Shown piece by piece: positions 16,121-64,000 of a stretch of DNA of 64,000 nt. The position numbers and the translations under genes were made by a program. Numbering within the stretch: the stretch's first letter is position 1; every line of letters starts with the position of its first letter. The stretch spans positions 4,793 through 68,792 of the forward strand of contig DYMH01000002.1 of assembly GCA_020721645.1 (NCBI GenBank), read 5' to 3'. The notes beneath the pieces were generated by a model. That model was not told where the DNA came from. It saw only the letters and a list, made by a program, of their open reading frames with translations, and ran no database searches. Source of the DNA: Draconibacterium orientale. GTDB taxonomy: Bacteria; Bacteroidota; Bacteroidia; Bacteroidales; JAADGE01.

Positions 16121-16306
16121 GTTTTGAATTGTTAATGTTAAATTGACAATGGATAATGCAAAAAAATAATATTTCAAATGAATGGAGAATTGTTATCATT
16201 GCAGACCAACTCGTATTACAAATCCGGAAATCATTTCAAAAAATATTTTTAAGGGTGTCAAACTCTAAATTTGCATAATTTTGTATCTTTGAAATAAAAA
16301 AAATAA

Positions 16307-16942: not shown

Positions 16943-16960
16943 CGATAGTTCTACATGAGT

Positions 16961-16986
16961 AATAATACCTGTATTATTTTTTTTTG
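16961..16986 (+). terminator. Weak AT-stem hairpin plus T-run after the LuxR-type regulator gene
   Basis: AATAATAC-CT-GTATTATT followed by a long T-run. The stem is almost entirely A/T (a single G-C pair), so stability is low. Confidence 0.35.
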
Positions 16987-17122
16987 ATTTATTTAGTTAT
17001 TTATTTTATTTCGCAACATCTTATATATCAAAATTATACTTCTTTCCTTTTTAAAAATATGAGAAAATAAAATTAGACATTGTTATGCGTAATATTCTTA
17101 TATTGAGCAATATGCTAAGAAT

Positions 17123-17149
17123 TAGGGTAGAAATACCCTATTTTTTTTT
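17123..17149 (+). terminator. Intrinsic terminator (orphan position)
   Basis: TAGGGTA-GAAA-TACCCTA followed by T9. It lies about 180 nt after the nearest upstream plus-strand stop codon. Confidence 0.55.
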
Positions 17150-17245
17150 GCGTTTTTCACTCTAAAAATAATTTCAAAGTCGCCGTACTTTTACACTATC
17201 AAAATGATGCAAAATCACACAATTCAAATTTAAAAAATAAACACC

Positions 17246-17743
17246 ATGGCAACTTCAAAAAAAATTTTATTAGTCGATGATGATATAGATGTTATTTCGG
17301 TAATGCAAACCCTTTTGGAACACGAAGGTTATACAATAATTACCGCATCGAATAAAAAAGAAGGTATTCGATTGGCAAAAGAGCAAAAACCGGATTTGGC
17401 TATTCTTGATGTCATGATGACTTCCCAATTTGAAGGTTTTGAGTTGGCAAAAGAGCTTTACGATGACGAAGATTTAAAACGTATGCCTAAATTATTCCAA
17501 ACCTCGGTCGAAGTGTTTTCGAGCAATAATGCCGATGTGGTGGAAATGGCAAAAGAATATCGCAAAGACCCGAGACATCGCGAATTGGAAGTGATTTTGG
17601 TGGAAGACCAAAAAACCGGTAAAGCCGGTGTAGATTATCGAAATGAAGAAGGTAAATGTATTTGGGTTTCTGTTGATGGTTTCATCAAAAAACCAGTCGA
17701 TTCCAAAAAATTGCTGCCCGCCGTTAATCGACTTTTAAAATAA
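17246..17743 (+). CDS. Stand-alone receiver-domain protein (CheY-like with short C-terminal extension)
   Basis: 165 aa. Motifs: KILLVDDD, PDLAILDVMM, FIKKPVD. No output domain. Confidence 0.85.
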   Translation: MATSKKILLVDDDIDVISVMQTLLEHEGYTIITASNKKEGIRLAKEQKPDLAILDVMMTSQFEGFELAKELYDDEDLKRMPKLFQTSVEVFSSNNADVVEMAKEYRKDPRHRELEVILVEDQKTGKAGVDYRNEEGKCIWVSVDGFIKKPVDSKKLLPAVNRLLK

Positions 17744-17818
17744 TGGACAATTGATAATTGACAATGGAAAATTGTTGATAAAAAAATAATTCTAATTATC
17801 AATTATTCATTATCCATT
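17742..17818. repeat. Word-based imperfect palindrome (AATGGACAATTGATAATTGACAATGG vs AATTATCAATTATTCATTATCCATT)
   Basis: The arms match at 20 of 25 positions when the right arm is reverse-complemented. It starts inside the stop codon of the receiver gene and contains the recurrent 11-mer TTGACAATGGA. Confidence 0.7.
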
Positions 17819-17950
17819 AAAAAATAAGGCTTTAGTTCTATTTCTATATTCGAGGGATTTTATCCCGCATAATGAGTGTTTGGTTTCAGAGAGTCGGGAG
17901 GAAAGTGTTCCGGCTCTTTGTTTAAAACTTTAAAAAGAAAATTAATACCA

Positions 17951-18415
17951 ATGGATTTAATTCAAAATATCGATACAATTATCGAAAAATATCCGAAATC
18001 GGAACGTCCGAATTTAATTCCGCTGCTTCAAGATTTGCAAGAACATCAAGGATTTTTGTCCGAAGAGGCAATGGTAAAAGTGGGCAAACATTTGGCTGTT
18101 CCGGTAAGCAACATCTACGGTGTGGCTACTTTTTACAATCAGTTCAAATTTGAGCCGTCTGGGAAATATCATATCAAGGTTTGTCGCGGAACGGCTTGTC
18201 ATGTTTTGGGATCTTCAACGGTTTTGGTTGAATTGGAAAAACAATTGAAAATTAAAGCCGGCAGCACTTCTCGCGATAAAATGTTCAGCCTCGAAGTCGT
18301 TGCCTGTATCGGAGCCTGCGGATTGGCTCCCGTTATCAGTGTTAATGATACTTTTCATGCAAAAGTCAGTGCAGCTTCAATCAAGGAAATTATCGAAAGT
18401 TACAAAAATATGTAA
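17951..18415 (+). CDS. hydC: [FeFe] hydrogenase small diaphorase subunit, NuoE/HndA-like [2Fe-2S] thioredoxin-like ferredoxin
   Basis: Motifs: LIPLLQDLQEHQGFLS, CRGTACHV, ACIGACGLAP. The ATG at 17951 is preferred over the GTG at 17876 in the ORF track, because the extension has no homology-like content and covers leader hairpins. Confidence 0.85.
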   Translation: MDLIQNIDTIIEKYPKSERPNLIPLLQDLQEHQGFLSEEAMVKVGKHLAVPVSNIYGVATFYNQFKFEPSGKYHIKVCRGTACHVLGSSTVLVELEKQLKIKAGSTSRDKMFSLEVVACIGACGLAPVISVNDTFHAKVSAASIKEIIESYKNM

Positions 18416-18477
18416 GACGCAAAAAAATATCTAACAACTCATTCATAATTCATAATTTATAATTCATAATTTCTAAA

Positions 18478-20403
18478 ATGATGTTAGCAACCGATATAAA
18501 ACCACTTTTAAAAAATTTCAACGAATACAAAACGGGGAAATCGGAATTAAAAGCAGAGTTTAAAGAAAAAAATCCGACAAAACCTGTTATTTACGTTGGA
18601 GCCGGAACCTGCGGATTGGCAGCCGGAGCAGACAAAACTCTGGCAAAAGTTCGCGAATATTTAAAAAATAAAAACATAGAAGCCGATGTAACCGAAACCG
18701 GATGCATCGGTTTGTGTTCTTCCGAACCATTGATGGACGTTCAAATTCCGGGTTTTAACCGAATTTCTTTCGAATTTGTAAGCGAAGACAAAGTTGAAGG
18801 AATTTTAGACCAAATTTTTGCCTTAAACACTCCAAAATCCAATATTTTGGCTCAATTCAGAAGCAAAGATTTCAGAATTTGGGAAAATGTTCAATTTTTA
18901 GACGAACATCCTTTTTTCAAACCGCAAATGAGATTTGTACTGAAAAATTGCGGAATTATCAATCCGGGAAGCATCGAAGAATATATTTTGCGAGGCGGAT
19001 ATGCGGCTCTTTTAAAAACATATTCCGATTATCAACCGGTTGATATTTGCGACATTATAGAAAAAAGCGGCTTACGCGGACGCGGCGGCGGTGGATTTCT
19101 CACCGGACGAAAATGGAAATTTGCTTTGGGAACCGAAAGCGATCATAAATACCTGATTTGCAATGCAGACGAAGGCGACCCCGGAGCATTTATGGACCGT
19201 GCCGTGATTGAAGGCGACCCGCACCGATTGATTGAAGGTATGGCAATTGCTGCCTACGCAATCGGAGCCGAAACCGGAATCGTATATATTCGTGCTGAAT
19301 ATCCGCTGGCTATCAAACGTTTGAAAGTTGCTCTGAAACAAGCAAAAGAAAACGGTTTGCTCGGCGATAATATTCTGGGAACAGGCAAAAAATTGGAAAT
19401 CAAAATAAAAATGGGTGCCGGTGCATTTGTTTGCGGCGAAGAAACCGCTATGATTCACAGCATCGAAGGAAAACGAGGAATGCCTCGTCCTCGCCCGCTT
19501 TTTCCGGCTGTCAGCGGATTGTTTGGGAAACCTACTGTTATTAATAACGTGGAAACTTTGGCAAACGTACCGTACATTCTTGAAAATGGTGCCGAATCGT
19601 TCAATTCTCTTGGAACCGAAAAAAGTAAAGGAACAAAAGTTTTTGCACTGTCCGGAAAAATTTCACTCACCGGTTTGGTCGAAATTCCGATGGGAACCAC
19701 CGTTCGCGAAGTGCTTTTCGGAATTGCCGGCGGCATAAAAAACGGAAAAAAATTCAAAGCCGTACAAATCGGCGGACCTTCCGGAGGGTGCATCACAGAG
19801 CAAAATCTGGATATTCAAATCGACTACGAATCACTGATTCAAGCAGGTGCCATGATGGGTTCCGGAGGTTTGGTGGTGATGGACGAAGACAATTGCATGG
19901 TCGATGTGGCAAAATTTTTCATGGATTTTATTCAACGCGAAAGCTGCGGAAAATGTATTCCGTGCCGAGAAGGAACAGCCCGAATGCTCGAAATTCTCGA
20001 AAACATCACCCACAAACCCGGCTCGGGCGAAAGCCACAGTGCTTTGGAGCGCATTAACGGTGTGATTCAACTCGAAAAACTCGGTCAGGTGATTAAAGAA
20101 ACATCGCTTTGCGGACTCGGACAAACGGCTCCAAATCCCGTTCTCAGCACCTTGCGTTGGTTTCGGCACGAATACGAGCAACATATTTTCGATCGTAAAT
20201 GCGCTGCCGGTGTATGCACCGAATTGCGTACTTTTAAAATTGATGTTGATAAATGTACCGGCTGCACCATTTGTGCCAAAAAATGCCCAACAGGAGCTAT
20301 TATCGGCGGGAAAAAAACACCGCATTTTATTATCGAAGAAAAATGTATCGCCTGCGGTGCCTGCGATGAAGCCTGTAAATTTGATGCAATTTTAATTTTT
20401 TAA
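18478..20403 (+). CDS. hydB: [FeFe] hydrogenase flavoprotein subunit, NuoF/HndC-like (FMN, NADH, Fe-S)
   Basis: 641 aa. N-terminal thioredoxin-like domain; SGLRGRGGGGFLTGRKW; CNADEGDPGAF; ESCGKCIPCREG; C-terminal 2x[4Fe-4S] (CTGCTICAKKCP, CIACGACDEAC). Confidence 0.9.
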   Translation: MMLATDIKPLLKNFNEYKTGKSELKAEFKEKNPTKPVIYVGAGTCGLAAGADKTLAKVREYLKNKNIEADVTETGCIGLCSSEPLMDVQIPGFNRISFEFVSEDKVEGILDQIFALNTPKSNILAQFRSKDFRIWENVQFLDEHPFFKPQMRFVLKNCGIINPGSIEEYILRGGYAALLKTYSDYQPVDICDIIEKSGLRGRGGGGFLTGRKWKFALGTESDHKYLICNADEGDPGAFMDRAVIEGDPHRLIEGMAIAAYAIGAETGIVYIRAEYPLAIKRLKVALKQAKENGLLGDNILGTGKKLEIKIKMGAGAFVCGEETAMIHSIEGKRGMPRPRPLFPAVSGLFGKPTVINNVETLANVPYILENGAESFNSLGTEKSKGTKVFALSGKISLTGLVEIPMGTTVREVLFGIAGGIKNGKKFKAVQIGGPSGGCITEQNLDIQIDYESLIQAGAMMGSGGLVVMDEDNCMVDVAKFFMDFIQRESCGKCIPCREGTARMLEILENITHKPGSGESHSALERINGVIQLEKLGQVIKETSLCGLGQTAPNPVLSTLRWFRHEYEQHIFDRKCAAGVCTELRTFKIDVDKCTGCTICAKKCPTGAIIGGKKTPHFIIEEKCIACGACDEACKFDAILIF

Positions 20404-20407
20404 AATT

Positions 20408-20493
20408 CAGACACAAGATTCGAGATACAAGACACAAGATAATTGAAAATATTTAATTTTTTTCTTGATACTTGATACTAAATACTTGATATT
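20408..20493. repeat. Intercistronic AGACACAAG-family repeat plus partially complementary CTTGATA words
   Basis: cagacacaagattcgagatacaagacacaagat ... tcttgatacttgatactaaatacttgatatt. The left part is homologous to 24269-24294 and 38976-39006. Confidence 0.7.
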
Positions 20494-20505
20494 AAAAACT
20501 AAATC

Positions 20506-22230
20506 ATGAACTTCAATATCGAAATAAATAATAAAACGGTTGAAGCCGTACAAGGCGAAACTATTTTGGATACTTTAAAACGAAACGGCGTAAAAGTTCC
20601 CACTTTGTGTCATCTCAAAGGCATGTTGCCAACCGGAGCCTGCCGAATTTGTATCGTAGAAAACGAAACAACCGGAAAATTGATTCCTTCGTGCTCGCAA
20701 CCCGTGGAAACAGGAATGAAAATTCTCACACATTCGCCTCGTGTGAACGAATCGCGAAAAACGATTATCGAACTTTTGTTGTCGAATCACCCTGACGATT
20801 GTTTGTATTGTGTACGAAACAAGAATTGCGAATTGCAAGACTTGGCAGAAACATATCAAGTGCGTGAAAGACGCATCAGAGGCAAAAAAAACAAACATCA
20901 TTTGGATCTTTCCGGAACGTCAATTGTTCGCGATCCCGCCAAATGTATCCTGTGCGAGCGATGTGTGCGAGTGTGCGATGAAGTTATGGGAGTTTCGGCA
21001 ATCGAAATATTGTATCGAGGAAGTAATTCTGTTGTTGGAACAGCTTTCAACAAAGGATTAAATACATCGAGTTGCATTAATTGCGGTCAATGTATTATGG
21101 TTTGCCCAACGGGTGCTCTGAGCGAAAAAAGCCATTTCCCCGAATTAATTGAAGCTCTGAAAGATAAGAAAAAGAAAGTTGTGGTTCAATATGCTCCTTC
21201 GATTACGGTTTCTTTGGCTGAGGAATTTAATATGAAGCCGGGCGAAGACATTAACGGATTGTTAAATGCCGCTTTGCGAAAAATCGGTTTCGATAATGTT
21301 TTTGATACCACATTTACTGCCGATTTGACCATTATGGAAGAATCTGCCGAGTTGATACAACGCATAACGGAAAACAAAAATCTGCCGCTCATCACGAGTT
21401 GTTGCCCGGGCTGGGTGAAATATGCCGAAGAATTTGCTGATGATTTTATTCCGAATATTTCATCGTGTAAATCGCCCCAACAAATGATGGGAGCTGTAAT
21501 TAAATCATATTTTGCCCAACAAATCAATACAAAACCCGAAGAAATTTATTCGGTTTCGATAATGCCTTGCACGGCAAAGAAATTTGAAATGCAACGGGTT
21601 GAAATGAACAGAAACGGAATCAACGATGTTGATGCTGTTCTCACAACACGCGAAATATCGAAATTATTCAAACTTTTTGGTATCGACATAAAATCTTTAG
21701 AACCCGAAACCGCCGATTCTCCAATGGGAATCCGCAGTACGGCAGGAAAATTGTTTGCAAATACGGGAGGCGTGATGGAAGCTGCATTGCGAACAGCACA
21801 TTTCAAACTTACGGGAAAAGAATTGGTGAATTTCAAAATTCCCCAAGTTCGCGGTCTGGACGGAATTAAAGAAGCCAAAATGACTATTGCCGGAATAGAA
21901 GTGGGAGTAGCCGTGGTGAGCGGATTGGCAAATGCACAAAAATTATTGCAGGAAATTCGCAACGGACGAAAAGACCTTCATTTTATTGAAATTATGGCTT
22001 GCCCCGGAGGCTGTATCAGCGGAGGCGGACAACCAATCAACAGCGATGAATCGATACTCAGAAGCCGTATTAAGGCGATATATGCTATCGACCATCGAGA
22101 ATCGATAAAAGTATCGCACAAAAATCCGGAAATTATCGAAATTTATCAAAATTTCCTCGAAAAACCACTCAGTCATAAAAGCCACGAATTACTCCACACT
22201 CACTACGAAAAACGTGATGTACTTAAATAA
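20506..22230 (+). CDS. hydA: [FeFe] hydrogenase catalytic subunit (M3-type, group A; bifurcating-type by gene context)
   Basis: 574 aa. N-terminal 2Fe-2S (CHLKGMLPTGACRIC), HPDDCLYCVRNKNC, two Fer4 motifs. H-cluster motifs TSCCPGWV, MPCTAKKFE, EIMACPGGCISGGGQP. Confidence 0.92.
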   Translation: MNFNIEINNKTVEAVQGETILDTLKRNGVKVPTLCHLKGMLPTGACRICIVENETTGKLIPSCSQPVETGMKILTHSPRVNESRKTIIELLLSNHPDDCLYCVRNKNCELQDLAETYQVRERRIRGKKNKHHLDLSGTSIVRDPAKCILCERCVRVCDEVMGVSAIEILYRGSNSVVGTAFNKGLNTSSCINCGQCIMVCPTGALSEKSHFPELIEALKDKKKKVVVQYAPSITVSLAEEFNMKPGEDINGLLNAALRKIGFDNVFDTTFTADLTIMEESAELIQRITENKNLPLITSCCPGWVKYAEEFADDFIPNISSCKSPQQMMGAVIKSYFAQQINTKPEEIYSVSIMPCTAKKFEMQRVEMNRNGINDVDAVLTTREISKLFKLFGIDIKSLEPETADSPMGIRSTAGKLFANTGGVMEAALRTAHFKLTGKELVNFKIPQVRGLDGIKEAKMTIAGIEVGVAVVSGLANAQKLLQEIRNGRKDLHFIEIMACPGGCISGGGQPINSDESILRSRIKAIYAIDHRESIKVSHKNPEIIEIYQNFLEKPLSHKSHELLHTHYEKRDVLK

Positions 22231-22259
22231 TTGATAATTCATAATTCATAATTAATAAG

Positions 22260-24260
22260 GTGCCTGTTTACAACGATACATTTCCGCTTGTTTTTACCGT
22301 CAAAGGTCGATGCCGTGTGTGTTACACGTGCATCCGGGAATGTCCGGTGAAGGCGATAAAAATCATCAACGGACAAGCCGAAATCATTACCGAACGCTGT
22401 ATTGCCTGCGGAAACTGTGTAAGAGTTTGCAGTCAGGAGGCAAAGGCATTTGCAAAATCCATCGACCGAGTTTGGCATTTGCTCGAATCGGACGAAAAAA
22501 CGGCAGCGGTTATCGCACCTGCATTTCCCGCCGAATTTGACGAGTTGCCTGATTATCGAAATTTGGTAGGTGCACTTCGTTCTTTGGGATTCGATTATGT
22601 GATAGAAACCGCATTCGGTGCGGATATCGTGGGACGAGAATATTCCCGTTTGTTGAAGAAAAACACGGAAGGAACAGTCATTTCCTCCGATTGCCCGGCG
22701 ATTGTCAATTATATCACATATTATCACCCCGAACTTTCGGAAAAGCTTGCTCCAATTGATTCTCCGATTATGGCAGCTGTGAAAGTAGTGAAGAAAAAAT
22801 ACGGCGATAATGTAAAAATTGTGTTTATCGGTCCGTGTATTGCCAAGAAATTGGAATTGGAAGACCCCAATGAAGTTCTTACTTTTTCGGAATTGCGGGA
22901 AATGTTCGATATGCAGAAAATTGATATTTCACAATCAGAAATTTCGGAATTCGACGAACCTTTTGCCGGAAACGGAGCTGTTTTCCCGATTAGTCGAGGT
23001 TTATTAAGAAATTTGCGAAAACCGGAACATATTACCGAAAGTGATGTTATAGTAACTCACGGACATGTTAATTTTCGAGATGCAGTTGATGAATTTAGAG
23101 AGGGTGATGTTGATTGTAAATACATGGAACTCTTGTGTTGTAATGGGTGCATTATGGGACCCGGAATGACGAAAAAGGGACAACGTTTTAAAAAACGAAC
23201 ATTGATTACAAATTATGTTCGCGAAAAACTCAAAAAACTCGATAAACCCACCTGGCGAAAAGAAATGACTCAATATGAAGATATTGACTTCAGCCGAACA
23301 TTCGATGGTTACAAACATCAAACTAAACTGCAACTGAAAAAAGAAGAAATTCAGGAAGTTTTGTTGAAAATGGGGAAAACCAAGCCCGAAGATCATCTCA
23401 ATTGCGGAGCTTGCGGATATGCCACATGTTTGCTGCATGCCGAGGCAATTGTGGAAGGACTTGCCGAAACCGAAATGTGTTTGCCCTACACCATCGAAAA
23501 ATTGCACGAAACGGTTGAGAAAATGGACCTTACAAATAAAAAATTGTCATCGGCTCGTCAGGCTTTAAAACAATCGGAAAAATTGGCAGGAATGGGACAA
23601 CTTTCTGCCGGAATTGCACACGAACTAAACAATCCGCTCGGTGTTATTACAATGTACAGTAATTTGTTATTGGAAGAAGCAAATCCGGATTCGCAAATGT
23701 ATGCCGATTTGAAATTGATTGCCGAACAAGCCTGCCGATGTAAAAATATTGTCGGTGGATTGCTCAATTTTGCCAGAAAAAATCAGGTGAAAACAACAGA
23801 ATGCAATTTTACCGAATTTGTAAAAAGCAGCATTTCTTCAATTTTAAAACCTGATAATATCAGCGTTTTATTTGATTCGAAACTTACAAATCCGAAAGTA
23901 AATATCGACATCGAACAAATGATGCAAGTGCTTACGAATCTCGAAAAAAATGCAGTGGAAGCAATGTCCGACGGCGGCGAATTGATGATTCGTATTTCCG
24001 AAGAAGGCAACAGTGTGATTTTGGAAGTAGAAGACACCGGAACAGGAATATCGAAAGAAAATATGGACAAAATTTTCACGCCGTTTTTCACAACAAAAGA
24101 ATTCGGAAAAGGAACAGGGCTCGGACTTCCGCTGATTTACGGAATTATAAAAATGCACATGGGAAAAATTTCCGTTGAATCGAACGATAAACCCGAAAAC
24201 GGACCGACCGGAACAAAATTTATTATCAGATTACCTCGAAATTTTCAATTCAATACTTAA
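22260..24260 (+). CDS. hydS: HydS-like sensory [FeFe]-hydrogenase domain fused to a histidine kinase (Fer4 + H-domain-like + Cx2Cx4Cx16C Fe-S motif + HisKA + HATPase_c)
   Basis: 666 aa with a GTG start. CRVCYTCIRECP and CIACGNCVRVC; H-domain-like motifs SSDCPAIVNY, GPCIAKKLE, ELLCCNGCIMGPG aligning with the HydA motifs; CGACGYATC-x16-C; then H-box SAGIAHELNNPLG and N/G boxes (NLEKNAVEAM, DTGTGI, GKGTGLGLP). Confidence 0.85.
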   Translation: MPVYNDTFPLVFTVKGRCRVCYTCIRECPVKAIKIINGQAEIITERCIACGNCVRVCSQEAKAFAKSIDRVWHLLESDEKTAAVIAPAFPAEFDELPDYRNLVGALRSLGFDYVIETAFGADIVGREYSRLLKKNTEGTVISSDCPAIVNYITYYHPELSEKLAPIDSPIMAAVKVVKKKYGDNVKIVFIGPCIAKKLELEDPNEVLTFSELREMFDMQKIDISQSEISEFDEPFAGNGAVFPISRGLLRNLRKPEHITESDVIVTHGHVNFRDAVDEFREGDVDCKYMELLCCNGCIMGPGMTKKGQRFKKRTLITNYVREKLKKLDKPTWRKEMTQYEDIDFSRTFDGYKHQTKLQLKKEEIQEVLLKMGKTKPEDHLNCGACGYATCLLHAEAIVEGLAETEMCLPYTIEKLHETVEKMDLTNKKLSSARQALKQSEKLAGMGQLSAGIAHELNNPLGVITMYSNLLLEEANPDSQMYADLKLIAEQACRCKNIVGGLLNFARKNQVKTTECNFTEFVKSSISSILKPDNISVLFDSKLTNPKVNIDIEQMMQVLTNLEKNAVEAMSDGGELMIRISEEGNSVILEVEDTGTGISKENMDKIFTPFFTTKEFGKGTGLGLPLIYGIIKMHMGKISVESNDKPENGPTGTKFIIRLPRNFQFNT

Positions 24261-24353
24261 CAGAGAAAAGACATAAGATTTTAGACACAAGACAATAAAT
24301 CTGTTTAACAATTTATTATTCTAATTACTAACTACTAATTACTAAATACGACA
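24261..24353 (+). repeat. Composite intercistronic cassette, copy A (AGACA[T/C]AAG words, small hairpin, TAATTACTAA-type words)
   Basis: Both ends are homologous to 38974-39076. aaagacataagattttagacacaagaca matches acagacacaagattttagacacaagaca, and attctaattactaactactaattactaa matches attctaaattctaactactaattcctaa. Confidence 0.8.
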
Positions 24354-24749
24354 ATGACTGAAATTAAAAAAAATATTCTCATCGTTGATGACGACCCCGA
24401 TTCTCTCGCTTTGATGACAATGCACGTTGAACGATTTGGTTTTAATGCCATTACGGCAGACAGCCAAAAAGCCGGCGAAGCAATTCTCGAAAAACAAAAA
24501 CCCGATTTAGCTATTCTGGATTTGATGATGGAAAAAGAAGACAGCGGTTTTATATTAGCATATCGCTTAAAACAAAAATATCCTGACGTTCCTGTTATTA
24601 TCGCAACAGCCGTTACAAAAGAAACCGGAATGGTTTTCGGAATCAATTACGAAGAAGAACGAAAATGGATTAAAGCCGATTTGTATCTCGAAAAAAATAT
24701 TCGTCCCGACCAATTACAGCGCGAAATTAACAGACTTTTGAAGCTGTAA
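24354..24749 (+). CDS. Stand-alone receiver-domain protein (CheY-like)
   Basis: 131 aa. Motifs: NILIVDDDPD, PDLAILDLMM, LEKNIRP. No output domain. Confidence 0.9.
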   Translation: MTEIKKNILIVDDDPDSLALMTMHVERFGFNAITADSQKAGEAILEKQKPDLAILDLMMEKEDSGFILAYRLKQKYPDVPVIIATAVTKETGMVFGINYEEERKWIKADLYLEKNIRPDQLQREINRLLKL

Positions 24750-24771
24750 AAAGTATAATGACGCAAGTATC

Positions 24772-24810
24772 AAGACACAAGAATGGGAAATGACTCATTT
24801 CTTGTGTCTT
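24772..24810 (+). promoter_or_regulatory. Perfect 12-bp intercistronic stem-loop of the AGACACAAG family
   Basis: AAGACACAAGAA (24772-24783) pairs with TTCTTGTGTCTT (24799-24810), with a 15-nt loop. The ORF-track ATG at 24783 begins at the last base of the left stem arm and runs into the loop. Confidence 0.75.
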
Positions 24811-24836
24811 TGGACTCACATCTCATATCAAAACAC

Positions 24837-25952
24837 ATGATACCATTAAAAGTTTTAGCGGTTGACGATGAATTTGGCATTCGCAAAGGCATCAGTCGAA
24901 TTTTAAACAATTTCAATGTCGATTTTCCGTTTTTGGAAGAAGCTTTTAATTACGAAATTATCGAAGTTGAAACCGGCGAATCGGCTCTCGAAATTCTAAA
25001 TTCAGAAAAAATTGATATTGTTTTGTTAGACAATCAATTGCCCGGTATTCACGGAACCGAAGTTTTGCAACAAATCAACGAACGCGGCTACGATTGTGCT
25101 GTGATGATGATAACGTCATACGCTTCACTTGAATTGGCTGTTGAAGCCACAAATAAAGGAGCTTTCAATTTTGTGCCGAAACCTTTTACGCCGCAAGAAT
25201 TGCGCGATGCGATTGAAAGCATCACCAAACACTTGTATTTGAAGCGAATGACACGCAAAATGAACGAGGAAGGACGCGAAACTCGTTTCCAATTTCTTTC
25301 GGTTCTTTCGCACGAGTTAAAATCGCCGATTAACGCAGTGGAAGGCTATTTGCGAATTATGCAGGACAAACAATTGGGCGAAAATATCGACGATTATCAA
25401 ACAATGCTCGGTCGTTCTTTGGAGCGCCTCAAAGGAATGCGCGGATTGATTTTCGATTTGCTTGATTTTACGCGGATTGAAAGCGGAAAGAAGAAACGCA
25501 ATTTACAAAAAATCGATATTATTAAAATAGCAAAAACATCGCTTGAATCAATAGAACCGGCGGCTTTGCAGAAAAATACAGAATTTATTTGCAATTTGCC
25601 CGAAGAATTGGAGATGACAGGCGACAGCGGCGAATTTGAGATTATTTTCAATAATTTGCTTTCCAATGCCGTGAAATACAACGTGAACAACGGGAAAGTG
25701 TTTTTTGTTATCAGCAACAATTCCGGGAAAATTCGCATTTCGGTAAAAGACACCGGAATAGGCATGAGTGCCGACGAAACCGCAGCATTGTTTAAAGATT
25801 TTGTTCGCATCAAAAACGAAAAAACAAAAAACATCACCGGCAGTGGCTTAGGTTTGTCGATTATGAAAAAAATCGTTGAAATGTACGGCGGAACAATTCA
25901 TGTGCTGAGCGAACCGGAAAAAGGAACAGAATTTATTGTTGATTTTCCGTAA
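24837..25952 (+). CDS. Hybrid receiver - histidine kinase (REC + HisKA + HATPase_c)
   Basis: Receiver (LKVLAVDDE, IDIVLLDNQLPG, FVPKPF), H-box LSVLSHELKSPIN, ATPase boxes (NLLSNAVKYN, DTGIGM, GSGLGLS). The ATG at 24837 is preferred over 24783 because of the hairpin. Confidence 0.85.
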   Translation: MIPLKVLAVDDEFGIRKGISRILNNFNVDFPFLEEAFNYEIIEVETGESALEILNSEKIDIVLLDNQLPGIHGTEVLQQINERGYDCAVMMITSYASLELAVEATNKGAFNFVPKPFTPQELRDAIESITKHLYLKRMTRKMNEEGRETRFQFLSVLSHELKSPINAVEGYLRIMQDKQLGENIDDYQTMLGRSLERLKGMRGLIFDLLDFTRIESGKKKRNLQKIDIIKIAKTSLESIEPAALQKNTEFICNLPEELEMTGDSGEFEIIFNNLLSNAVKYNVNNGKVFFVISNNSGKIRISVKDTGIGMSADETAALFKDFVRIKNEKTKNITGSGLGLSIMKKIVEMYGGTIHVLSEPEKGTEFIVDFP

Positions 25953-28055
25953 TTATATCTCATCTTTTATTGTTATCATTACAAACATTCCTTTTCCGTC
26001 TTCGCTGTTAAAATCGCATTTTCCGCGAATTGTTTTTATTTTATTGGCAATATTTCCCAAGCCCATTCCTGCTCCTTCCCGCATCATTTTGTCGATGTCG
26101 AAACCAACGCCGTCATCGCGATAATAAAGAATAATCAAGTGATTCACGTTTTTAAGTTCTATTGTTATTTTGGAAGCTTGCGAATGTTTTATTGTATTGT
26201 TAATTAATTCTTTAATTGATTGATAGAGAATAGTTTCCACAATATCATGCTTTTCGCGTATATAATTTTCGGTATTCAGCTCAATTTCAACCGATTTGCT
26301 GTTTTGTACAAATGCAATAAAATCGTTTACGGCAGCAGCCAAACCGAAATCCTGCAAATTTCCCGGAGCAATATTTTTTGAAATTTGCTTGGTTGTTTTT
26401 ATGGCTTCATCGACTAATTCATCGATATTTTGTGCAATTTCCGTAATGCTGATTTTGTTGAAATCTCCTTTTTTCAATAAATCGCTGTACAACTTTGCTG
26501 TTGAGAGAATTGGTCCCAAATCGTCGTGCAAATCGCCGGCAAAACGTTTGCGTTCCTTATCTTCTGTTTCAATAATTGCCGTTACAAGCTTTTTTTCCAA
26601 AGCTTTTCGTTCGGTAATATTTCGTGCAATGCTTAAAATTGCTTCTCTTCCCGCAAAATCAAACAAACGACTTTTCATTTCATATGAAATAACTGTTCCC
26701 GACTTGGAAATATGTTCAGTTTCGTAAACATAATAACCTTTTTCACGTACTGTTGTTAATATTTCATTAACTTCTTGTCTGTAAAATGATGTTTTAATAT
26801 CGTGAAGTCGCATTTTAAGTAATTCTTTTTTTGAATAGCCCAAACTTTCGCATGTTAATTTGTTCATTTCCACAAAATAACCGTTGAAATCAACAAGATA
26901 AATTTCATCGCCGCTGTTCTCGAAAAGCAATCGGAATTTTTTTTCGGATTCCTCAAGATCTGCCTGCGTTTTAATGAGTTTCTTATTATAATCGGCAATT
27001 TCCTTGATATATGAAATCAGTTTCCGGGTAGTGAAAAAATAGACAAAAACAGACAATAAAATGAAAATTAAAACTCCGAGAATTAACGAACGGATAATAA
27101 TGTTTTTGACCATTACAGATGCTGTTTCGTCTTCGTCAACTGTCGCAATCACATACAAATCGAAGTTTTCAAAATATGAAAAAGCTGTAATTTGTCGATT
27201 TTTAGGCGATTGATTTGTAGGTCTGAAACTCCCGTTTTTTTGATTCTGTATCATTTCAAAAATTTGCTGATTGAAAGACCCGTTTTTTGAATCGGAACTT
27301 TGAACAACAATTTCTCTTTTATTATTGATAATGAGAATATCACCGGGAATTTCTACTTTAAAATTTTTGATAATCTTTGAAATTTCAGATAAATCCTTTT
27401 CTTTTACTCCAACATAAAGCATTCCAATTATTTTGTCTTTATTAAAGATAGGTTCGTAAGCTGCAATATACCAGTCATTTACAACAAAAGCCCGACCAAA
27501 AAACGAATTCCCTTTTTCGATTGATTTCACAACTTCCGAACTGTTTGGAATGTAGGTATATAAAGCCCGTGAATCATCTGAATTTCTGACATTTGTCGAA
27601 ATTCTCACAAAACCGCTGTCAGTTTTTTGAAAAATGGTTGAAGTACAATGTGTAATTTCCTGAATTTTATCGACGGCGGAAAAGTCAGCAGAAATATCTT
27701 TTCCGCTTAAAAACCAGTAATTCAATGGTGATTGAATTGAAATTCCTGTATTTTGGTCGATAATTTGTTCGAGATTTTTTTGGGGTTGAATTTTCAAAGT
27801 CGAGGAATGGAAATAATCGTGAAAGAATCTCAAATTTTCCTTTACTTTCTCGGTTTTCAGACTTTTTTCACGCTCAAAAATACCAACTATTGTTTGAGTT
27901 TCAAGCAGTAAACTTTTTTCGCTTGCTTCAAAAACCGTTTGTTTCGATGTTTGAACCGATTGAAAGGTTATGGCAAAAACCGAAGCCGCAATACCGATAG
28001 CCAGCGGAGAAAAAATTTTCAATCGAATAAGTCGTCGCGGATATTTTAGTTTCAT
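25953..28055 (-). CDS. Membrane sensor histidine kinase (Cache-like periplasmic domain + PAS + HisKA_3 + HATPase_c), NarX/LiaS-type
   Basis: 700 aa. TM - about 290-aa extracytoplasmic domain - TM; PAS region (FRLLFENSGDEIYLVD); H-box FAGDLHDDLGPILS typical of HisKA_3; C-terminal ATPase (DDGVGFD, GMGLGNI). Confidence 0.85.
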   Translation of the reverse strand: MKLKYPRRLIRLKIFSPLAIGIAASVFAITFQSVQTSKQTVFEASEKSLLLETQTIVGIFEREKSLKTEKVKENLRFFHDYFHSSTLKIQPQKNLEQIIDQNTGISIQSPLNYWFLSGKDISADFSAVDKIQEITHCTSTIFQKTDSGFVRISTNVRNSDDSRALYTYIPNSSEVVKSIEKGNSFFGRAFVVNDWYIAAYEPIFNKDKIIGMLYVGVKEKDLSEISKIIKNFKVEIPGDILIINNKREIVVQSSDSKNGSFNQQIFEMIQNQKNGSFRPTNQSPKNRQITAFSYFENFDLYVIATVDEDETASVMVKNIIIRSLILGVLIFILLSVFVYFFTTRKLISYIKEIADYNKKLIKTQADLEESEKKFRLLFENSGDEIYLVDFNGYFVEMNKLTCESLGYSKKELLKMRLHDIKTSFYRQEVNEILTTVREKGYYVYETEHISKSGTVISYEMKSRLFDFAGREAILSIARNITERKALEKKLVTAIIETEDKERKRFAGDLHDDLGPILSTAKLYSDLLKKGDFNKISITEIAQNIDELVDEAIKTTKQISKNIAPGNLQDFGLAAAVNDFIAFVQNSKSVEIELNTENYIREKHDIVETILYQSIKELINNTIKHSQASKITIELKNVNHLIILYYRDDGVGFDIDKMMREGAGMGLGNIANKIKTIRGKCDFNSEDGKGMFVMITIKDEI

Positions 28056-28168
28056 AATGCAATGCTTGATACTGAAAAAATATTATCAAAAACCTCTCAA
28101 ATAACACAATAAATTACAGAACTTTAGTTTGAAGAAAGTTGAATGCTTTAAGCATTTTATAAAACCAA

Positions 28169-28867
28169 TTATACTATATGATAATAAAAGTAAATAGAAC
28201 CAAAAACTACTAATAAATTGCCCGACATGTGAACGGCAATAGCATAGGCATTGTTATTGTATTTTTCCTGGTAATATCCTGCTACTAATCCGATTATGGT
28301 GGTGAATATAATAGTTTTAAGCAAAAGTAAAAAACCAGCACCAGTCGTTATTAAAATCAAATGTGATGATCCAAACATGATAGCACTGATTATAACAGGA
28401 AAGCAAATTTTTCTTACAAACAGCATTATTCCATATGCATTCATTGGTTTTAAAATGTTTAATAAAAAACCGCGAAATAAAATTTCTTCGACAACAGAAG
28501 CATAGATAAAAATGAATATAATTACTTCAAACGGTGTCATTTTTGTTATAATTTCCATTCCTTCAATCTTATTTCCGGAAATTATAATTATTAATGAAAT
28601 AGAGACATTTACAATAAAACTCGCACAGAAACCAAACACTATCGGCTTTAATAATTTCTTTAAATTGGGTAATGAAATTTTATAATCAACATGTTTTTTC
28701 AATATAAATAGTGTCAAAACAGATAATAATAGCATAGTCGAATACGTATAAAAAGCATTTCCTAAAAAATCAATATTCAAGTCTATCACACGACCAATAA
28801 TATTCGATAATAAAAATATTACAATTGCAAGTGTCATTCCATAAATAATTTGTTCGAAATTTTTCAT
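28169..28867 (-). CDS. CPBP-family intramembrane glutamic endopeptidase (CAAX protease-like)
   Basis: 232 aa and polytopic. Motifs: EEILFRGFLLN and FGSSHL. Confidence 0.75.
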   Translation of the reverse strand: MKNFEQIIYGMTLAIVIFLLSNIIGRVIDLNIDFLGNAFYTYSTMLLLSVLTLFILKKHVDYKISLPNLKKLLKPIVFGFCASFIVNVSISLIIIISGNKIEGMEIITKMTPFEVIIFIFIYASVVEEILFRGFLLNILKPMNAYGIMLFVRKICFPVIISAIMFGSSHLILITTGAGFLLLLKTIIFTTIIGLVAGYYQEKYNNNAYAIAVHMSGNLLVVFGSIYFYYHIV

Positions 28868-29065
28868 TCGTTAATAATTTGTTAAAAACTATCCAATACA
28901 TGATTTTTTTTCCAAAGTTAGTCAATTATCTATTTGTTGAAAAAAGTTCCCGGCTGAAAATTCCATTTTTGTTCCTAAATTATCTAAAGTTTCAAAACAA
29001 AAGTATTTATTTTAAATTTGAAAAAATAATGAAATCACATCCTCCTCACTCTTAATAAAAAAAAA

Positions 29066-30211
29066 ATGGAAAATTTCACGGCTTACAATCCTACAATGCT
29101 GCATTTCGGTAAAAACGTAACCGATAAATTGGGCGAAACAGCATCGCAATACGGAAAAACAGCTCTCTTGATTTTCGGAAATGGAAGTGTAATTGAAAAT
29201 GGCTATTATGATACGATTAAAAATCAACTCAAAAAAGCGAATATTAAAATTGCTGAATATTCAGGAATCAGACCCAATCCGCATATCGAAGACGTGGACA
29301 AAGCCTCTGAATTGTGCCGAAAAGAAAACGTCAATTTGATTGTTGCACTCGGTGGCGGAAGTGTAATTGACAGTGCCAAAGCCGTTTCGGTTTGTGCTCC
29401 CGAAAACCTGAAAGTTTGGGACGTAGTCAAAGGAAAATCCAAACCGACAAAATCTTTGCCGCTGATTGCTGTTTTGACATTGGCTGCAACAGGCACCGAA
29501 ATGAATCCGTTTGCAGTGGTTCAAAATCCCGAAACATCAGAAAAAATAGGCTTCGGCGGACCTTTAATGTATCCGAAACACTCGTTTCTCGACCCGCAAT
29601 TCACTTACAGTGTTCCGAAAAATTATACGGCTTACGGAATTGTCGATTTGATTGCCCACTCACTCGAAAATTTCTTCGGATACGGACACGCACCCCTCAG
29701 CGACCGATTTGTTGCATCAATCATCACCGAAGCAATGCACTACGGACCTTTGCTGTTGAGTGATTTGACAAATTACGATTACCGAGCTAATATCTTATGG
29801 CAATCGACCTGTGCTCTCAACGGAACAACTTTACACGGACGAGCGGGCGGCGATTGGGGCGTTCACGATTTGGGGCATTCGCTGTCTGTTCTTTTCGATA
29901 CGCCGCACGGTGCAACGCTTTCCGTTGCCTACATCGCATGGTTTAAATGGTTGAAAACAAAAGACAACAAACGTTTAGCCGATTTATCTAAATTGTTGTT
30001 TAACACTGAAAACACTGATGTTTTAATCGAAAAATTCGAGTCATTTTTTAAATCAATAGAATGCCCTGTTCGTTTGGCGGAAGTCGGCATCGAAATTGAT
30101 AAAAAACAAATGATATTTGATACTTTCACAAAAAACAATGTTACCGGAACGATGTATAAAATGAACGAGGCAGACAGAATGTTTCTGTTGGAAAATATGT
30201 ATTCACTGTAA
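29066..30211 (+). CDS. Iron-containing (group III) alcohol dehydrogenase, butanol dehydrogenase/YqhD-like
   Basis: 381 aa. Motifs: LIVALGGGSVIDSAK, LTLAATGTEMN, histidine-rich metal site (HDLGHSLS...PHGA). Confidence 0.85.
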   Translation: MENFTAYNPTMLHFGKNVTDKLGETASQYGKTALLIFGNGSVIENGYYDTIKNQLKKANIKIAEYSGIRPNPHIEDVDKASELCRKENVNLIVALGGGSVIDSAKAVSVCAPENLKVWDVVKGKSKPTKSLPLIAVLTLAATGTEMNPFAVVQNPETSEKIGFGGPLMYPKHSFLDPQFTYSVPKNYTAYGIVDLIAHSLENFFGYGHAPLSDRFVASIITEAMHYGPLLLSDLTNYDYRANILWQSTCALNGTTLHGRAGGDWGVHDLGHSLSVLFDTPHGATLSVAYIAWFKWLKTKDNKRLADLSKLLFNTENTDVLIEKFESFFKSIECPVRLAEVGIEIDKKQMIFDTFTKNNVTGTMYKMNEADRMFLLENMYSL

Positions 30212-39076: not shown

Positions 39077-39934
39077 ATGGCAGAAGAAAATTCCGGTTGG
39101 TTCAACCGAAGCGAGAAAGGCATCATCACCGAAACAAAAGATAAAAAAGAAGTAAAAGAAGGCTTGTGGTACAAATGCCCCGAATGCAAAAAAATTGTTC
39201 CCACAGCCGACCACGAAAATAATCTTAATGTCTGCCAATGCGGCTATCATGAAAGAATACCCTCAGTCAAATATTTTGAAATATTATTCGATAACCATCA
39301 ATACAAAGAAATCGACACCCACCTGACATCAGCAGACCCTCTGAATTTTAAAGATACAAAAAAATATTCCGAGCGTCTGACAGCCGTCATGAAAAAAACA
39401 AAACTCAAAGATGCCTTAACAACAGCAGTTGGTAAAATCGGAAACTACGAAACTGTCGTTGCTTCCATGAATTTTGAATTTATCGGCGGGTCGATGGGGG
39501 CAGTTGTCGGCGAAAAAATAGCACGAGCAGTTGATTATGCAATTAAACAACGATGTCCGTTAATAATAATTTCAAAATCAGGCGGAGCTCGCATGATGGA
39601 AGCCGCATTTTCACTAATGCAAATGGCAAAAACATCAGCAAAATTGATGCAATTGTCCCAAGCCAAGTTACCCTATATTTCCCTGCTTCTCGACCCTACA
39701 ACCGGCGGAACCACAGCATCGTTTGCTATGTTGGGAGATGTTAATATTTCCGAACCGGGTGCTCTGATTGGATTCGCAGGTCCGCGTGTAGTACGAGAAA
39801 CAATCGGCAGAGATTTGCCCGACGGATTTCAAACAGCCGAATTTGTTCTCGAACACGGATTTTTGGATTATATCGTCGAACGAAAAAATTTGAAAGAAAC
39901 CATATCACAACAAATCAGAATGTTTATGGAATGA
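39077..39934 (+). CDS. accD: Acetyl-CoA carboxylase carboxyltransferase beta subunit
   Basis: 285 aa. N-terminal zinc ribbon CPECKK...CQCGYH and carboxyltransferase core ([19 protein letters not shown]). Confidence 0.93.
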
Positions 39935-40197
39935 TATACTTTGATTGGTTGATTTTTTGATGTGATGAGATACTGATTGCTTTTAATATCAATACGTTAA
40001 ACAATTTGTAAATCGCAATTTAAGTCCCTGCTTAGTATAAAATGGAAAATTCTGAAATAAATACAAATTCAGCTTTCTGTAACCCTTGTTTATATACTAA
40101 AAACGGTTAATTTGTTTACTTTTAGATGTTTGTAAGTGTTTAATATTCAGCATAATCAACACATCATCGCATTAAATAATCAACCAATCAGAGTATA
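39935..40197. repeat. 263-bp element bounded by about 46-bp imperfect terminal inverted repeats (MITE-like or giant hairpin)
   Basis: The left end is TATACTTTGATTGGTTGATT... and the reverse complement of the right end is TATACTCTGATTGGTTGATT... . These match at 19 of the first 20 nt and roughly 36 of 46 overall. It begins at the base after the accD stop codon. The arms are themselves made of TGATT/TGATG words. Confidence 0.7.
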
Positions 40198-40278
40198 TAT
40201 TGATTCTAAACTTTTTGGATTTGATATAATAACACTCGAATCCATTTTTACATTTCCAAATTTTTACAATTTTCTTGA

Positions 40279-61485: not shown

Positions 61486-61575
61486 TGTGTTTTTTGTTTG
61501 ATTTTCCTTCGCAACCTATAGTTTTGAGAATTTGTAAATTTAAAATTATCGGTAAATAAAAGTAAAAAAAATAAT

Positions 61576-61708
61576 TGAGTTCGGTATAAAAAACTGAATT
61601 TGTGAAATCAAAGCCGCAAGGCGATTTTCTAATTAACTGTAAAACAGTTTTTTGTGATTTGATAATTTTACAAATATAATCGCCATGCGGCTTATTATAC
61701 CGGACTCA
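61576..61708 (-). promoter_or_regulatory. Nested GC-cored stem structure followed by a U-run on the minus strand, in the putative 5-prime leader of the 1510-aa gene
   Basis: Outer stem TGAGTTCGGTATAA (61576-61589) pairs with TTATACCGGACTCA (61695-61708). Inner stem AAGCCGCAAGGCGATT (61611-61626) pairs with AATCGCCATGCGGCTT (61678-61693). Central hairpin is AACTG-TAAAA-CAGTT. On the minus strand the closing stem is followed by ATTATTTTTTTT. Confidence 0.55.
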
Positions 61709-61861
61709 TTAGTAAATTACAGATATTATGTCTTGCATAAACGCTAAAATGCAAATTATTCAATATCAATGCTTTTGCGTTCTTTGCGACTTTGCGAGAT
61801 AAAAAATACCGAGCGATTAATCTGATTTATCCGGGTATAATTAAATTAGAATCCGATTATT

Positions 61862-62081
61862 AGAAACTGTTTAAAAATAGAGATAATTTACTTATTGACT
61901 ATCTCCGGCATTTATGCCGTGTTCTAAAAACCCGAACAAAGGCTTTAGCCAAAAATTTAGTTGCTTTTTTGGAGGGCTAAAGCCCGATTTCGTTTCTTTA
62001 TATTCTCCGGCATAAATGCCGGAGATAGTCATAATAAAACAAATTCAAAATTTTTAAACAGTTTCTTATAATGATTTTTTT
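61862..62081 (+). promoter_or_regulatory. Triple-nested palindrome followed by T7 on the plus strand, upstream of the choice-of-anchor-J-like gene
   Basis: AGAAACTGTTTAAAAAT (61862-61878) pairs with ATTTTTAAACAGTTTCT (62050-62066). GACTATCTCCGGCATTTATGCCG (61897-61919) pairs with CGGCATAAATGCCGGAGATAGTC (62008-62030). The inner pair is GGCTTTAGCC / GGCTAAAGCC. A perfect 22-nt palindrome TCTCCGGCATAAATGCCGGAGA lies at 62004-62025, and T7 at 62075-62081. Confidence 0.6.
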
Positions 62082-62239: not shown

Positions 62240-64000
62240 ATGAACAAAAAAAATTTTACATTATTAATTGCCTTCACATTTCTTCTCGGAGGAATGGCAA
62301 GTGCACAAAAAAGTTTGACAGCTGAAACAGGGCTTGCAAAAAAACAATTCAGAGAAGGTAAAATTGTTAAACAAAACAATCATTTGAACAGCAAAGCTGC
62401 TATATTCTCGGAAGATTTTAGCGGTGGAGCATTACCCGCAGATTGGCAGAATATTGATAATTCAACAAACGGTTTTGTATGGGTTTTCACTAATCCGGGT
62501 GCACGAACAATTAACACAACAACCGGAGCCACCGGCTTTGCAATTGCCGACAGTGATAATTTAGGCGATGTTGGCGGGGAAGATTGCGATTTAATTACTC
62601 CAACCATCGATTGTTCTGCTTTGACAGTTGTTAAATTACGTTTCGAACATTATTTTTATGCAGGTTATGGCGGAGCAGGTGTTGTTTCTGTTTCCGGAAA
62701 TAACGGCTCAAATTGGACAGACCTCGAATCGTTTGGTGCTGCTTCAACAGCAAATGCAGCTGTTGCCGAATATGATATTTCAGCAGTTGCCGCAGGCTCT
62801 ACTTCTGTTTTAATAAAATGGAATTGGACCGGAGATTGGTCTTGGTATTGGGCAATAGACGATGTTTCTGTTTTTGAACCCGAAGCAAACGATTTAGCAG
62901 TTACTGCTGTTGCTCCTTCGGGATTAATAGGACATTTTGGTGTAACACCTAAAGTTACTGTTTTAAATAACGGTGGCACAGACCAAAGTACATATTCCGT
63001 CTTATTAGAAGACGGTGCCGGTTATTCGGAAACATTTAACTCAGGTGCTACGTTAGCAGCAGGTGCTTCACTTGAAATATTATTCCCTGAATGGATTCCT
63101 GCTGTTGGTGTTTATACATTAACTGCAACCGTAACTTTAGCCGGTGACGGAAATAACACAAATGATATTCTCGCTTCGACAGGAGAAGTTGTTGATGGCT
63201 TGTTATGGGGTGCAAATATAGATAATACAGGAAGCGAAAACGGGATTATTTCGACAGACTTGGGAGGAATAACACCCGGTTTGATTGAAACTGCTGATGA
63301 TTTTGAACTTCCCGCAGGTACTTGGTTTATTGATCAAATTACCTCAACTGGTTTTCAAAGTGCAGGAACATTAACCGGTTTCAGAGTAATAATATATGCA
63401 GATAACGCCGGCACACCCGGTGATGTTGTATTTGAAGAAGTTGTAGCTGAAACTAATGCCGATGAGCAAATTTTAACTTTTACCAATCCTTTAGTACTTC
63501 CGGGTGAAACTAAATATTGGCTTATGATTGCAGGCGTTTATCCAACAGCAACAGCCGTTAGTCAAGGTCGTTGGAATTGGTTTACATGGGATAATTTGAC
63601 CGGTTACGAAGCTAATTTGCGAGATCAACCCGCCGTTTTTGGAGTTGGTACAGATTGGAATGCTTTGTCCGCTATAGGTGTTACAGGTGCTGCTTCCACT
63701 AATTTTGCTATCTATGGTCATGTACCTTCTACCTCTTACGATATTACTTTCAACATAAATATGTTAGGAACAAATTCTACATTCAATGCTGCAACACAAG
63801 AAGTATATCTTTCGGGTAGTGTTTTCAATCCGGTTTGGCCAAAACCGGGTGAACTTCCCGCTGCTCAAATGACAGATGTTGATGCCGATGGTATTTATAC
63901 CATAACATTGACCTTAGATGCAGGTGATTATGAATATAAAACATTCTATATCAATACAGGCACACCTTCTTGGGATAATAGCTATACCGGAAATTTACCT
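62240..64000 (+). CDS. Secreted choice-of-anchor-J / MAM-like domain protein (5-prime partial, runs off the window)
   Basis: Hand translation from ATG 62240 is open for all 587 codons to the window end. It is absent from the ORF track because it has no in-window stop. Signal peptide MNKKNFTLLIAFTFLLGGMASAQ, then EDFSGGALPADWQNIDNS...GFAIADSD...WYWAIDDVSVFE. Confidence 0.75.
   Translation, partial: MNKKNFTLLIAFTFLLGGMASAQKSLTAETGLAKKQFREGKIVKQNNHLNSKAAIFSEDFSGGALPADWQNIDNSTNGFVWVFTNPGARTINTTTGATGFAIADSDNLGDVGGEDCDLITPTIDCSALTVVKLRFEHYFYAGYGGAGVVSVSGNNGSNWTDLESFGAASTANAAVAEYDISAVAAGSTSVLIKWNWTGDWSWYWAIDDVSVFEPEANDLAVTAVAPSGLIGHFGVTPKVTVLNNGGTDQSTYSVLLEDGAGYSETFNSGATLAAGASLEILFPEWIPAVGVYTLTATVTLAGDGNNTNDILASTGEVVDGLLWGANIDNTGSENGIISTDLGGITPGLIETADDFELPAGTWFIDQITSTGFQSAGTLTGFRVIIYADNAGTPGDVVFEEVVAETNADEQILTFTNPLVLPGETKYWLMIAGVYPTATAVSQGRWNWFTWDNLTGYEANLRDQPAVFGVGTDWNALSAIGVTGAASTNFAIYGHVPSTSYDITFNINMLGTNSTFNAATQEVYLSGSVFNPVWPKPGELPAAQMTDVDADGIYTITLTLDAGDYEYKTFYINTGTPSWDNSYTGNLP

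Follow-up and report, generated by a model that had tools for sequence, protein, structure and literature searches.

A strain-variable 203-bp palindrome between divergent genes of Draconibacterium orientale is probably a MITE

What is the long palindrome that lies between two divergently transcribed genes in Draconibacterium orientale: a regulatory structure of the host, or a piece of inserted DNA? The window analyzed here is a stretch of 64,000 nucleotides from contig DYMH01000002.1 (GCA_020721645.1, positions 4,793 to 68,792). It contains a spacer of 754 bp with a G+C content of 27%, bounded on the minus strand by a 1510-aa AMP-binding/GNAT gene (start at 61485) and on the plus strand by a gene encoding a secreted Cleaved_Adhesin/X25/Por_Secre_tail protein (ATG at 62240). 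Positions 61856–62072 of this spacer form a long imperfect palindrome, which a preliminary description had read as a MITE-like insertion, a cruciform-forming insulator, or one of a pair of leader attenuators. Its positions for the T7 run that follows the palindrome and for the ATG were correct, and the absence of an upstream plus-strand gene, which it had also reported, was confirmed.

The palindrome consists of three nested pairs of arms. The outer arms (61856–61878 and 62050–62072) are 23 nt long and match at 96% with one mismatch, and they contain the perfect 17-bp pair that had been described, the core of which starts at 61862. The middle arms (61896–61919 and 62008–62031) are a perfect inverted repeat, as claimed, but the true length of this repeat is 24 nt rather than 23. 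The 10-bp inner pair was likewise found, as GGCTTTAGCC (61941–61950) and GGCTAAAGCC (61975–61984). The local hairpins within the arms are as described, with one exception: TCTCCGGCATAAATGCCGGAGA, which had been taken for a perfect 22-nt palindrome, has a 10-bp stem around a non-self-complementary AA and shows two mismatches to its own reverse complement. When 61856–62072 was folded as RNA, the predicted minimum free energy was −84.1 kcal/mol for the plus strand (z = −11.9) and −96.7 kcal/mol for the minus strand (z = −14.1), and none of 200 shuffled sequences reached this stability. The exact 203-bp element delimited below has a folding energy of −52.7 kcal/mol as DNA (z = −10.8) and shares 71% identity with its own reverse complement across its full length. 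The palindromic structure is far beyond chance.

The occupied site was compared among strains using the contigs of eight members of the 90% cluster of the 1510-aa protein. In four of these contigs (L003, L004, L011, and L014), the element occupies the same site, with 97.5–99% identity. A fifth, L015 (GCA_022737625.1), belongs to the same species and aligns with both flanks at approximately 98%, but lacks exactly 61863–62065 plus one TTA. Assemblies GCA_974325965.1 and GCA_020720605.1 also contain this locus. The empty site in L015 reads TAGAATCCGATTA-TTA-TAATG-T11-GACTACTC, and the occupied site in the window reads TAGAATCCGATTA-TTA-[GAAACTGTTTAAAAAT ... ATTTTTAAACAGTTTC]-TTA-TAATGA-T7-GACTACTC. 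TTA is thus present on both sides of the element and only once in L015, the pattern of a target-site duplication. The limits of the element and its TTA brackets are fixed by this comparison (Table 1), and other placements of the boundaries, for example with a TA duplication, give asymmetric ends. The same pattern would also result if an element that itself ends in TTA had inserted 3′ of a TTA, with no duplication. Looking for an empty site among close relatives had been proposed in the preliminary description; the exact flanks and the single copy of the bracketing TTA in L015 bear out its option of a MITE-like insertion. Outside the species, the nearest orthologue of the 1510-aa protein (L006, 69% identity) has no upstream synteny and so provides no empty site.

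Table 1. Features of the palindromic element and its immediate flanks (positions in the window).
Feature	Position	Strand	Remark
Whole element	61863..62065	.	203 bp; missing as a single block from L015
Left TTA flanking repeat, read as target-site duplication	61860..61862	.	Occupied versus empty site
Left TIR GAAACTGTTTAAAAAT, 16 bp	61863..61878	+	Perfect reverse complement of 62050–62065
Left hp1 module, TGACTA + TCTCCGGCATTTATGCCG	61896..61919	+	Perfect 24-nt inverted repeat with 62008–62031
Left hp2 module GGCTTTAGCC	61941..61950	+	Inner inverted pair
Palindrome centre (loop), poorly conserved	61951..61973	.	
Right hp2 module GGGCTAAAGCCC	61974..61985	+	Identical 12-mer in L002
Right hp1 module, TCTCCGGCATAAATGCCGGAGA + TAGTCA	62004..62031	+	28/28 identical to L002, 27/27 to L001
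Right TIR, ATTTTTAAACAGTTTC on the plus strand	62050..62065	-	Pairs with the left TIR
Right TTA flanking repeat	62066..62068	.	Occupied versus empty site
T7 run	62075..62081	+	Host flank, outside the element; present at the empty site

The element is a discrete block that is polymorphic among strains, bounded by TIRs, flanked by TTA, and non-coding. Its two TIRs match at 16 of 16 positions (GAAACTGTTTAAAAAT), and its G+C content is 33%, compared with 25% in the remaining spacer. The only ORF within it (46 aa) has no relative but itself among 5.8 billion proteins, and the element has no coding capacity. With a length of 203 bp, it falls within the size range of MITEs, which are non-coding and under approximately 600 bp. 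We consider it highly likely that 61863–62065 is a MITE, namely a non-coding, non-autonomous transposon with perfect 16-bp TIRs. On this reading, an element that most strains carry and one cleanly lacks is ordinary selfish DNA, as opposed to a regulatory device. The nested appearance of the palindrome would stem from the relation between the two halves of the element, each being an inverted copy of the other. Three putative modules can be told apart in either half: the TIR; hp1, which is TGACTA followed by a 22-nt hairpin; and hp2, a small GGCTNNAGCC hairpin.

Among element-bearing strains, the hp1 loop differs, the left hp1 regains a G, and three further substitutions occur; none of these changes is compensatory. 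The loop change is from TTTAT to TTCAT in the right hp1 module of L011 and L014, with the stem intact. The left hp1 has lost one G in the assembly that contains the window, and this hairpin is complete in L003, L004, L011, and L014. In total, 5–6 changes were counted in 220 nt of the element and 11 in 585 nt of the rest of the spacer; the two rates are about equal, which fits a passenger. When the window is compared with L003 over 17 kb, two of the nine differences fall within the element: a C/A change at 61933 and, at 61918, the loss of 1 nt, which impairs the left hp1 hairpin. These two differences may reflect palindrome-associated instability or an assembly error.

An unrooted tree of the 4.5-kb gene groups the window with L003, L011 with L014, and L015 with L016, supported by 17, 7, and 7 sites, respectively. 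The element was found in two of these three clades, and on the unrooted tree one gain or one loss accounts equally well for its distribution. The L015 allele may be the ancestral empty site or the product of a precise loss; if the root lies on the long branch leading to the window, then L015 lost the element precisely. Replication slippage between 3-bp repeats across a hairpin is one route to such a loss. Another is excision of the PIF/Harbinger type, which restores a single TTA (PMC4561436). Whichever the direction of the event, the TTA-TIR...TIR-TTA architecture is a signature of transposition.

A search of genome contigs with the 24-nt arm retrieved exact matches in two GTDB species genomes. 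One of them is a Mariniphaga MAG, bin JABMQB01, in which the copy is located upstream of an unrelated gene on a contig (L002) that ends in the middle of the element. The modules follow the same order as in the window: TTA, a TIR-like 16-mer, TGACTA-hp1, GGACTTTAGTCC, and then GGGCTAAAGCCC, the inverted hp2. The L002 hp1 is identical to that in the window, and the spacers between modules cannot be aligned. The TIR-like sequence (GAGGCTGTGTGAAAAC) is situated 12 nt outside TGACTA, is preceded by TTA, and matches the outer arm of the window at 11 of 16 positions. A match of this quality with the preceding TTA has a probability of ~0.0006 against shuffled sequences and ~0.02 against random segments of L002. 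Judged from its module order and sequence, the L002 copy is a probable second member of the family, at an unrelated locus in another genus.

The other match is from a ‘Candidatus Moduliflexus’ MAG, the bin that includes CAZCGG010000184, on a GC-rich contig (L001) with two intergenic arrays at 756–992 and 1873–2081. In these arrays, TGACTA-TCTCCGGCAT..ATGCCGGAGG alternates with CCACAGGCTAAAGCCTGTGG-TTAGTCA, head to head and tail to tail, and at least 11 modules are present in 8 kb. All nine copies seen, including one in L002 and six in L001, share the hp1 16-mer TGACTATCTCCGGCAT without change and have TGACTA as the foot of hp1, while the loops and neighbouring sequence vary. The counterparts of hp2, GGACTTTAGTCC in L002 and CCACAGGCTAAAGCCTGTGG in L001, keep the hairpin with different stems. 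Across phyla, hp1 is conserved at 27–28 of 28 positions, compared with 11 of 16 for the TIR in L002. The arrays flank a PIN-domain toxin gene (1162–1635, minus strand) and a small downstream ORF. No transposase was identified beside the L001 arrays, which have the PIN-domain toxin gene between them, and a Pfam scan of nine other ORFs yielded none. At 4047–4129 and 7643–7715, contig L001 also has REP pairs of classical appearance that are separate from the arrays and whose foot is GTAG (GGTAGCCCCGCGCTACGTCGTGGGA). Because these pairs share a contig with the TGACTA arrays, the Moduliflexus genome hosts at least two hairpin-repeat families.

High copy number is usual for MITEs, but only one copy was found in approximately 110 kb of sequence from the species (the window plus L003–L016). 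Searches for further copies were extended to several collections. Using blastn, the element and the L001 array returned chance AT-rich matches or nothing from plasmids and phages. Exact and degenerate hp1 patterns had no match in viral contigs and none in metagenome contigs, a collection that evidently does not include a JGI contig carrying the element. The TIR with TTA had no exact match in viral contigs, and its degenerate consensus had 15. These 15 matches were rejected as copies; they are single, occur in unrelated sequence, and have no credible inverted partner and no hp1. An autonomous element with these ends was not found in plasmids, phages, or viral contigs. A full-text literature search for the hairpin sequences returned unrelated primers only. 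Six-frame translations of the L001 arrays were discarded as a search route, as they are full of stops (TGA and TAG in TGACTA).

The T-run is host flank, separate from the element, because the empty site also has it and strains differ in its length (T7 in both the window and L003, T8 in both L011 and L014, and T11 in L015). In the window, with a G+C content of 38%, T forms 42 runs of 7 nt or longer and A forms 65, and the 27% G+C spacer by itself contains nine runs of at least 6 nt. A cis-regulatory RNA that governs or insulates the 62240 gene, either as an attenuator or as an intrinsic terminator (hairpin plus U7), would account for the very stable predicted RNA hairpin, for a T7 that starts 9 nt beyond the end of the element, and for the location of the structure 174 nt upstream of the ATG. 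We regard this as extremely improbable. An intrinsic terminator has a short GC-rich stem-loop with a U-tract directly after it in the same unit, whereas here a 203-nt structure stands beside a T-run of the host, and a terminator scan identified no site. The best Rfam match in the window region at a permissive E-value is a plant miRNA model with 29.6 bits, compared with 140 required, and the L001 arrays match psRNA14 alone, with 27 bits compared with 60 required. The changes among strains are non-compensatory, as described above. In L015, where the element is missing, the 1510-aa gene is intact and the right flank is orthologous, the contig stopping before the 62240 gene. The related copy in L002 adjoins a different gene in another genus. 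Two Bacteroidetes-type −7 motifs (TAnnTTT), at 62159 and 62185, lie between the element and the ATG, and by motif match they place the promoter of the 62240 gene probably 3′ of the element; scans for sigma-70 and Bacteroidetes-type promoter motifs gave nothing informative beyond these candidate −7 boxes. The earlier reading of a leader attenuator, with its hairpin and U-run, is not upheld, given the host origin of the T-run, the intact 1510-aa gene in L015, the lack of an Rfam match, and the different gene beside the related copy. A DNA structure selected by the host, such as a cruciform insulator or a palindromic regulator site in the divergent promoter region, appears very unlikely as well. 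The 203-bp near-palindrome does lie in a divergent spacer, a setting in which negative supercoiling builds up, its DNA folding energy is the −52.7 kcal/mol given above, and hp1 is a 10+2+10 palindrome of the type bound by dimeric regulators. However, the element is dispensable in L015, its rate of change within the species matches the background, its modules recur at unrelated loci and in the tandem arrays of L001, and nothing in the data requires such a role.

A different kind of mobility is proposed by a REPIN/BIME-type reading, according to which inverted REP-like modules are moved as ssDNA by a HUH tyrosine transposase (RAYT or IS200/IS605-like). TTA would then serve as the cleavage or target triplet, one lying in the left flank and one forming the end of the element, without any duplication. 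The layout of hp1 is REP-like, with a 5′ flank and an imperfect palindrome whose centre is TT in one copy and AA in the inverted copy, and REPIN doublets with TT/AA centres in inverted copies have been described (PMC3337134). The two hp1 modules of the element (61896–61919 and 62004–62031) form one hairpin, as inverted REP doublets do. The intergenic arrays of L001 alternate in orientation like BIMEs, and HUH elements excise precisely. The cross-phylum conservation of hp1 at 27–28 of 28 positions, with spacers that are not conserved, is expected if the enzyme reads the hairpin and its foot (PMC3479197). On the other hand, REPs are defined by a palindrome whose 5′ foot carries the conserved tetranucleotide GTAG (or GTGG) (PMC3479197), and hp1 has neither; its foot is TGACTA. 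Perfect 16-bp TIRs approximately 33 nt outside hp1 are needless for HUH elements. No Y1 transposase was detected in the Pfam-annotated parts of the window (~1–12, 22–43, and 47–64 kb) or among the nine ORFs scanned in L001. REPINs are far denser than one doublet per ~110 kb, and one study describes REPIN-RAYT systems as vertical and lineage-specific, not cross-phylum (bioRxiv 10.1101/2022.05.22.493013). Both the REPIN/BIME-type origin and its reading of TTA as a cleavage triplet are, on balance, unlikely. Similarly doubtful is a composite reading, in which hp1 (TGACTA + TCTCCGGCAT-NN-ATGCCGGAGA) and hp2 (GGCTAAAGCC) belong to an undescribed REP-like hairpin system and the window element is a TIR-bounded MITE carrying a REPIN-like doublet. 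If true, it would imply two mobilization machineries, or one enzyme that reads the internal hairpin and not the ends, and a horizontal spread between phyla, Bacteroidota and Moduliflexota.

Under the preferred MITE reading, a transposase encoded elsewhere would bind the ends of the element and cut and paste it in trans, and a staggered cut at TTA would produce the 3-bp duplication. Duplications of 3 bp (TTA/TAA) and precise excision are known from PIF/Harbinger-Tourist elements (PMC4561436, PMC2213677). The mobilizing enzyme may be a DDE transposase of the IS5 or PIF-Harbinger type, a tentative assignment suggested by the TWA duplication of 3 bp together with G..CTGTTT-type ends. The parent IS would then have ends of the form GARRCTGTKTRAAAAY and encode a DDE (IS5-type) transposase. 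Against the MITE reading, the conservation of hp1 (28 of 28 positions) relative to the TIR (11 of 16) is unusual for an end-reading DDE enzyme and fits hairpin-recognizing enzymes better. Since hp1 is conserved far better than the termini or the spacers, a protein probably recognizes it, and copies would have to retain it in order to be propagated. The element itself would be a passenger in an AT-rich divergent promoter region, and the promoters of both neighbouring genes probably belong to the host sequence.

The spacer contains a second palindrome at 61562–61709 (core 61576–61708; RNA z = −6.2), which the preliminary description had linked with the first as large hairpins upstream of the two divergent genes. 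The two are not a matched regulatory pair; the second palindrome belongs to a different repeat family with an extra copy in L015. That copy is a 265-bp insertion (L015 107–371) with TIR-like ends, CAATAGTTCG...CGAAGTATTG, and AAATA/AAATA flanks; the other strains do not have it. The insertion is located 17 nt (TAGAATCCGATTATTA plus 1) to the left of the insertion point of the element. Its core is a 77%-identical inverted copy of the second palindrome, with compensatory stem changes from GCCGC/GCGGC to GTCGC/GCGAC. This additional copy marks the spacer as a landing pad for small elements, and the spacer is a nest of at least two small palindromic mobile families that differ between co-existing strains. 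The Logan contigs L005 and L016 both break within the second palindrome.

Several other structures were observed in the window. The inverted repeat at 39934–40198, in the carboxyl-transferase/HHH_3 spacer, has 59-nt arms (76% complementary) that are 147 nt apart and is a candidate for another small palindromic element. At 3908–4105, in the amylase-like/amidohydrolase spacer, there is a 21-nt inverted repeat (86%; GCTTATCCCGATTATTACCTA / TAGGTATTATCCGGGATAAGC) with arms 156 nt apart. A strain-level structural variant was seen between positions ~16120–29066 of the window and 4326–6668 of contig L010 (JGI 3300000228), in the interval from the MM-CoA mutase gene to the Fe-ADH gene. A block of approximately 13 kb carrying sensor-kinase, response-regulator, and Fe-hydrogenase-like sensor genes is replaced in JGI 3300000228 by small Por_Secre_tail and Fib_succ_major genes. 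Within the secreted-protein gene, six substitutions relative to L003 and L004 are clustered in 19 nt (62704–62722) of a 17-kb overlap that is otherwise near-identical; this cluster looks like a small recombination or mutation patch.

With the MITE reading, the interpretation of this locus is corrected: a large, regulatory-looking hairpin with a U-tract would be a transposon insertion beside an unrelated U-tract of the host. The locus provides a clean example of a MITE with its empty site from an uncultured Bacteroidota lineage. Insertions of this kind can serve as markers for strains, and they may change the spacing of promoters. The single point of wider interest in the element is hp1, as 27–28 nt kept exactly across phyla amid diverged surroundings imply a sequence-specific protein partner.

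The element can be compared with several known groups of small palindromic repeats. Correia/NEMIS elements in Neisseria, ERIC/IRU in enterobacteria, and RUP in Streptococcus are intergenic imperfect palindromes of approximately 100–200 bp that form long hairpins and can sit in promoter regions; they duplicate TA and are multi-copy in their hosts. The element shares no sequence similarity with them, and its flanking repeat is TTA and not TA. The IS5 family comprises the bacterial relatives of PIF/Harbinger and generates 2–4-bp TNA duplications; its subgroups IS1031, ISL2, and IS427 (ISfinder) may be the link to the element. With REPINs and BIMEs (RAYT, TnpA-REP), the element shares an inverted doublet of flank plus imperfect palindrome that folds into a long hairpin, and TT/AA centres (PMC3337134, PMC3479197). 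It differs from them in its additional 16-bp TIRs, its TTA flanks, the absence of a RAYT from the sequences searched, and a module that crosses phyla, as well as in density, with one doublet per ~110 kb compared with hundreds of REPINs per genome. Relative to Tourist-like and IS5 elements, it is distinguished by an apparently low copy number, by the lack of an IS5-type parent with these ends among the sequences searched, and by an interior of GC-rich hairpin modules that are better conserved than the ends. Like Tourist-like MITEs (PIF/Harbinger), however, it is short and non-coding, with G..CTGTTT TIRs and a 3-bp TTA duplication, and the L015 allele, restored to a single TTA, resembles the precise excision of mPing (PMC4561436, PMC2213677).
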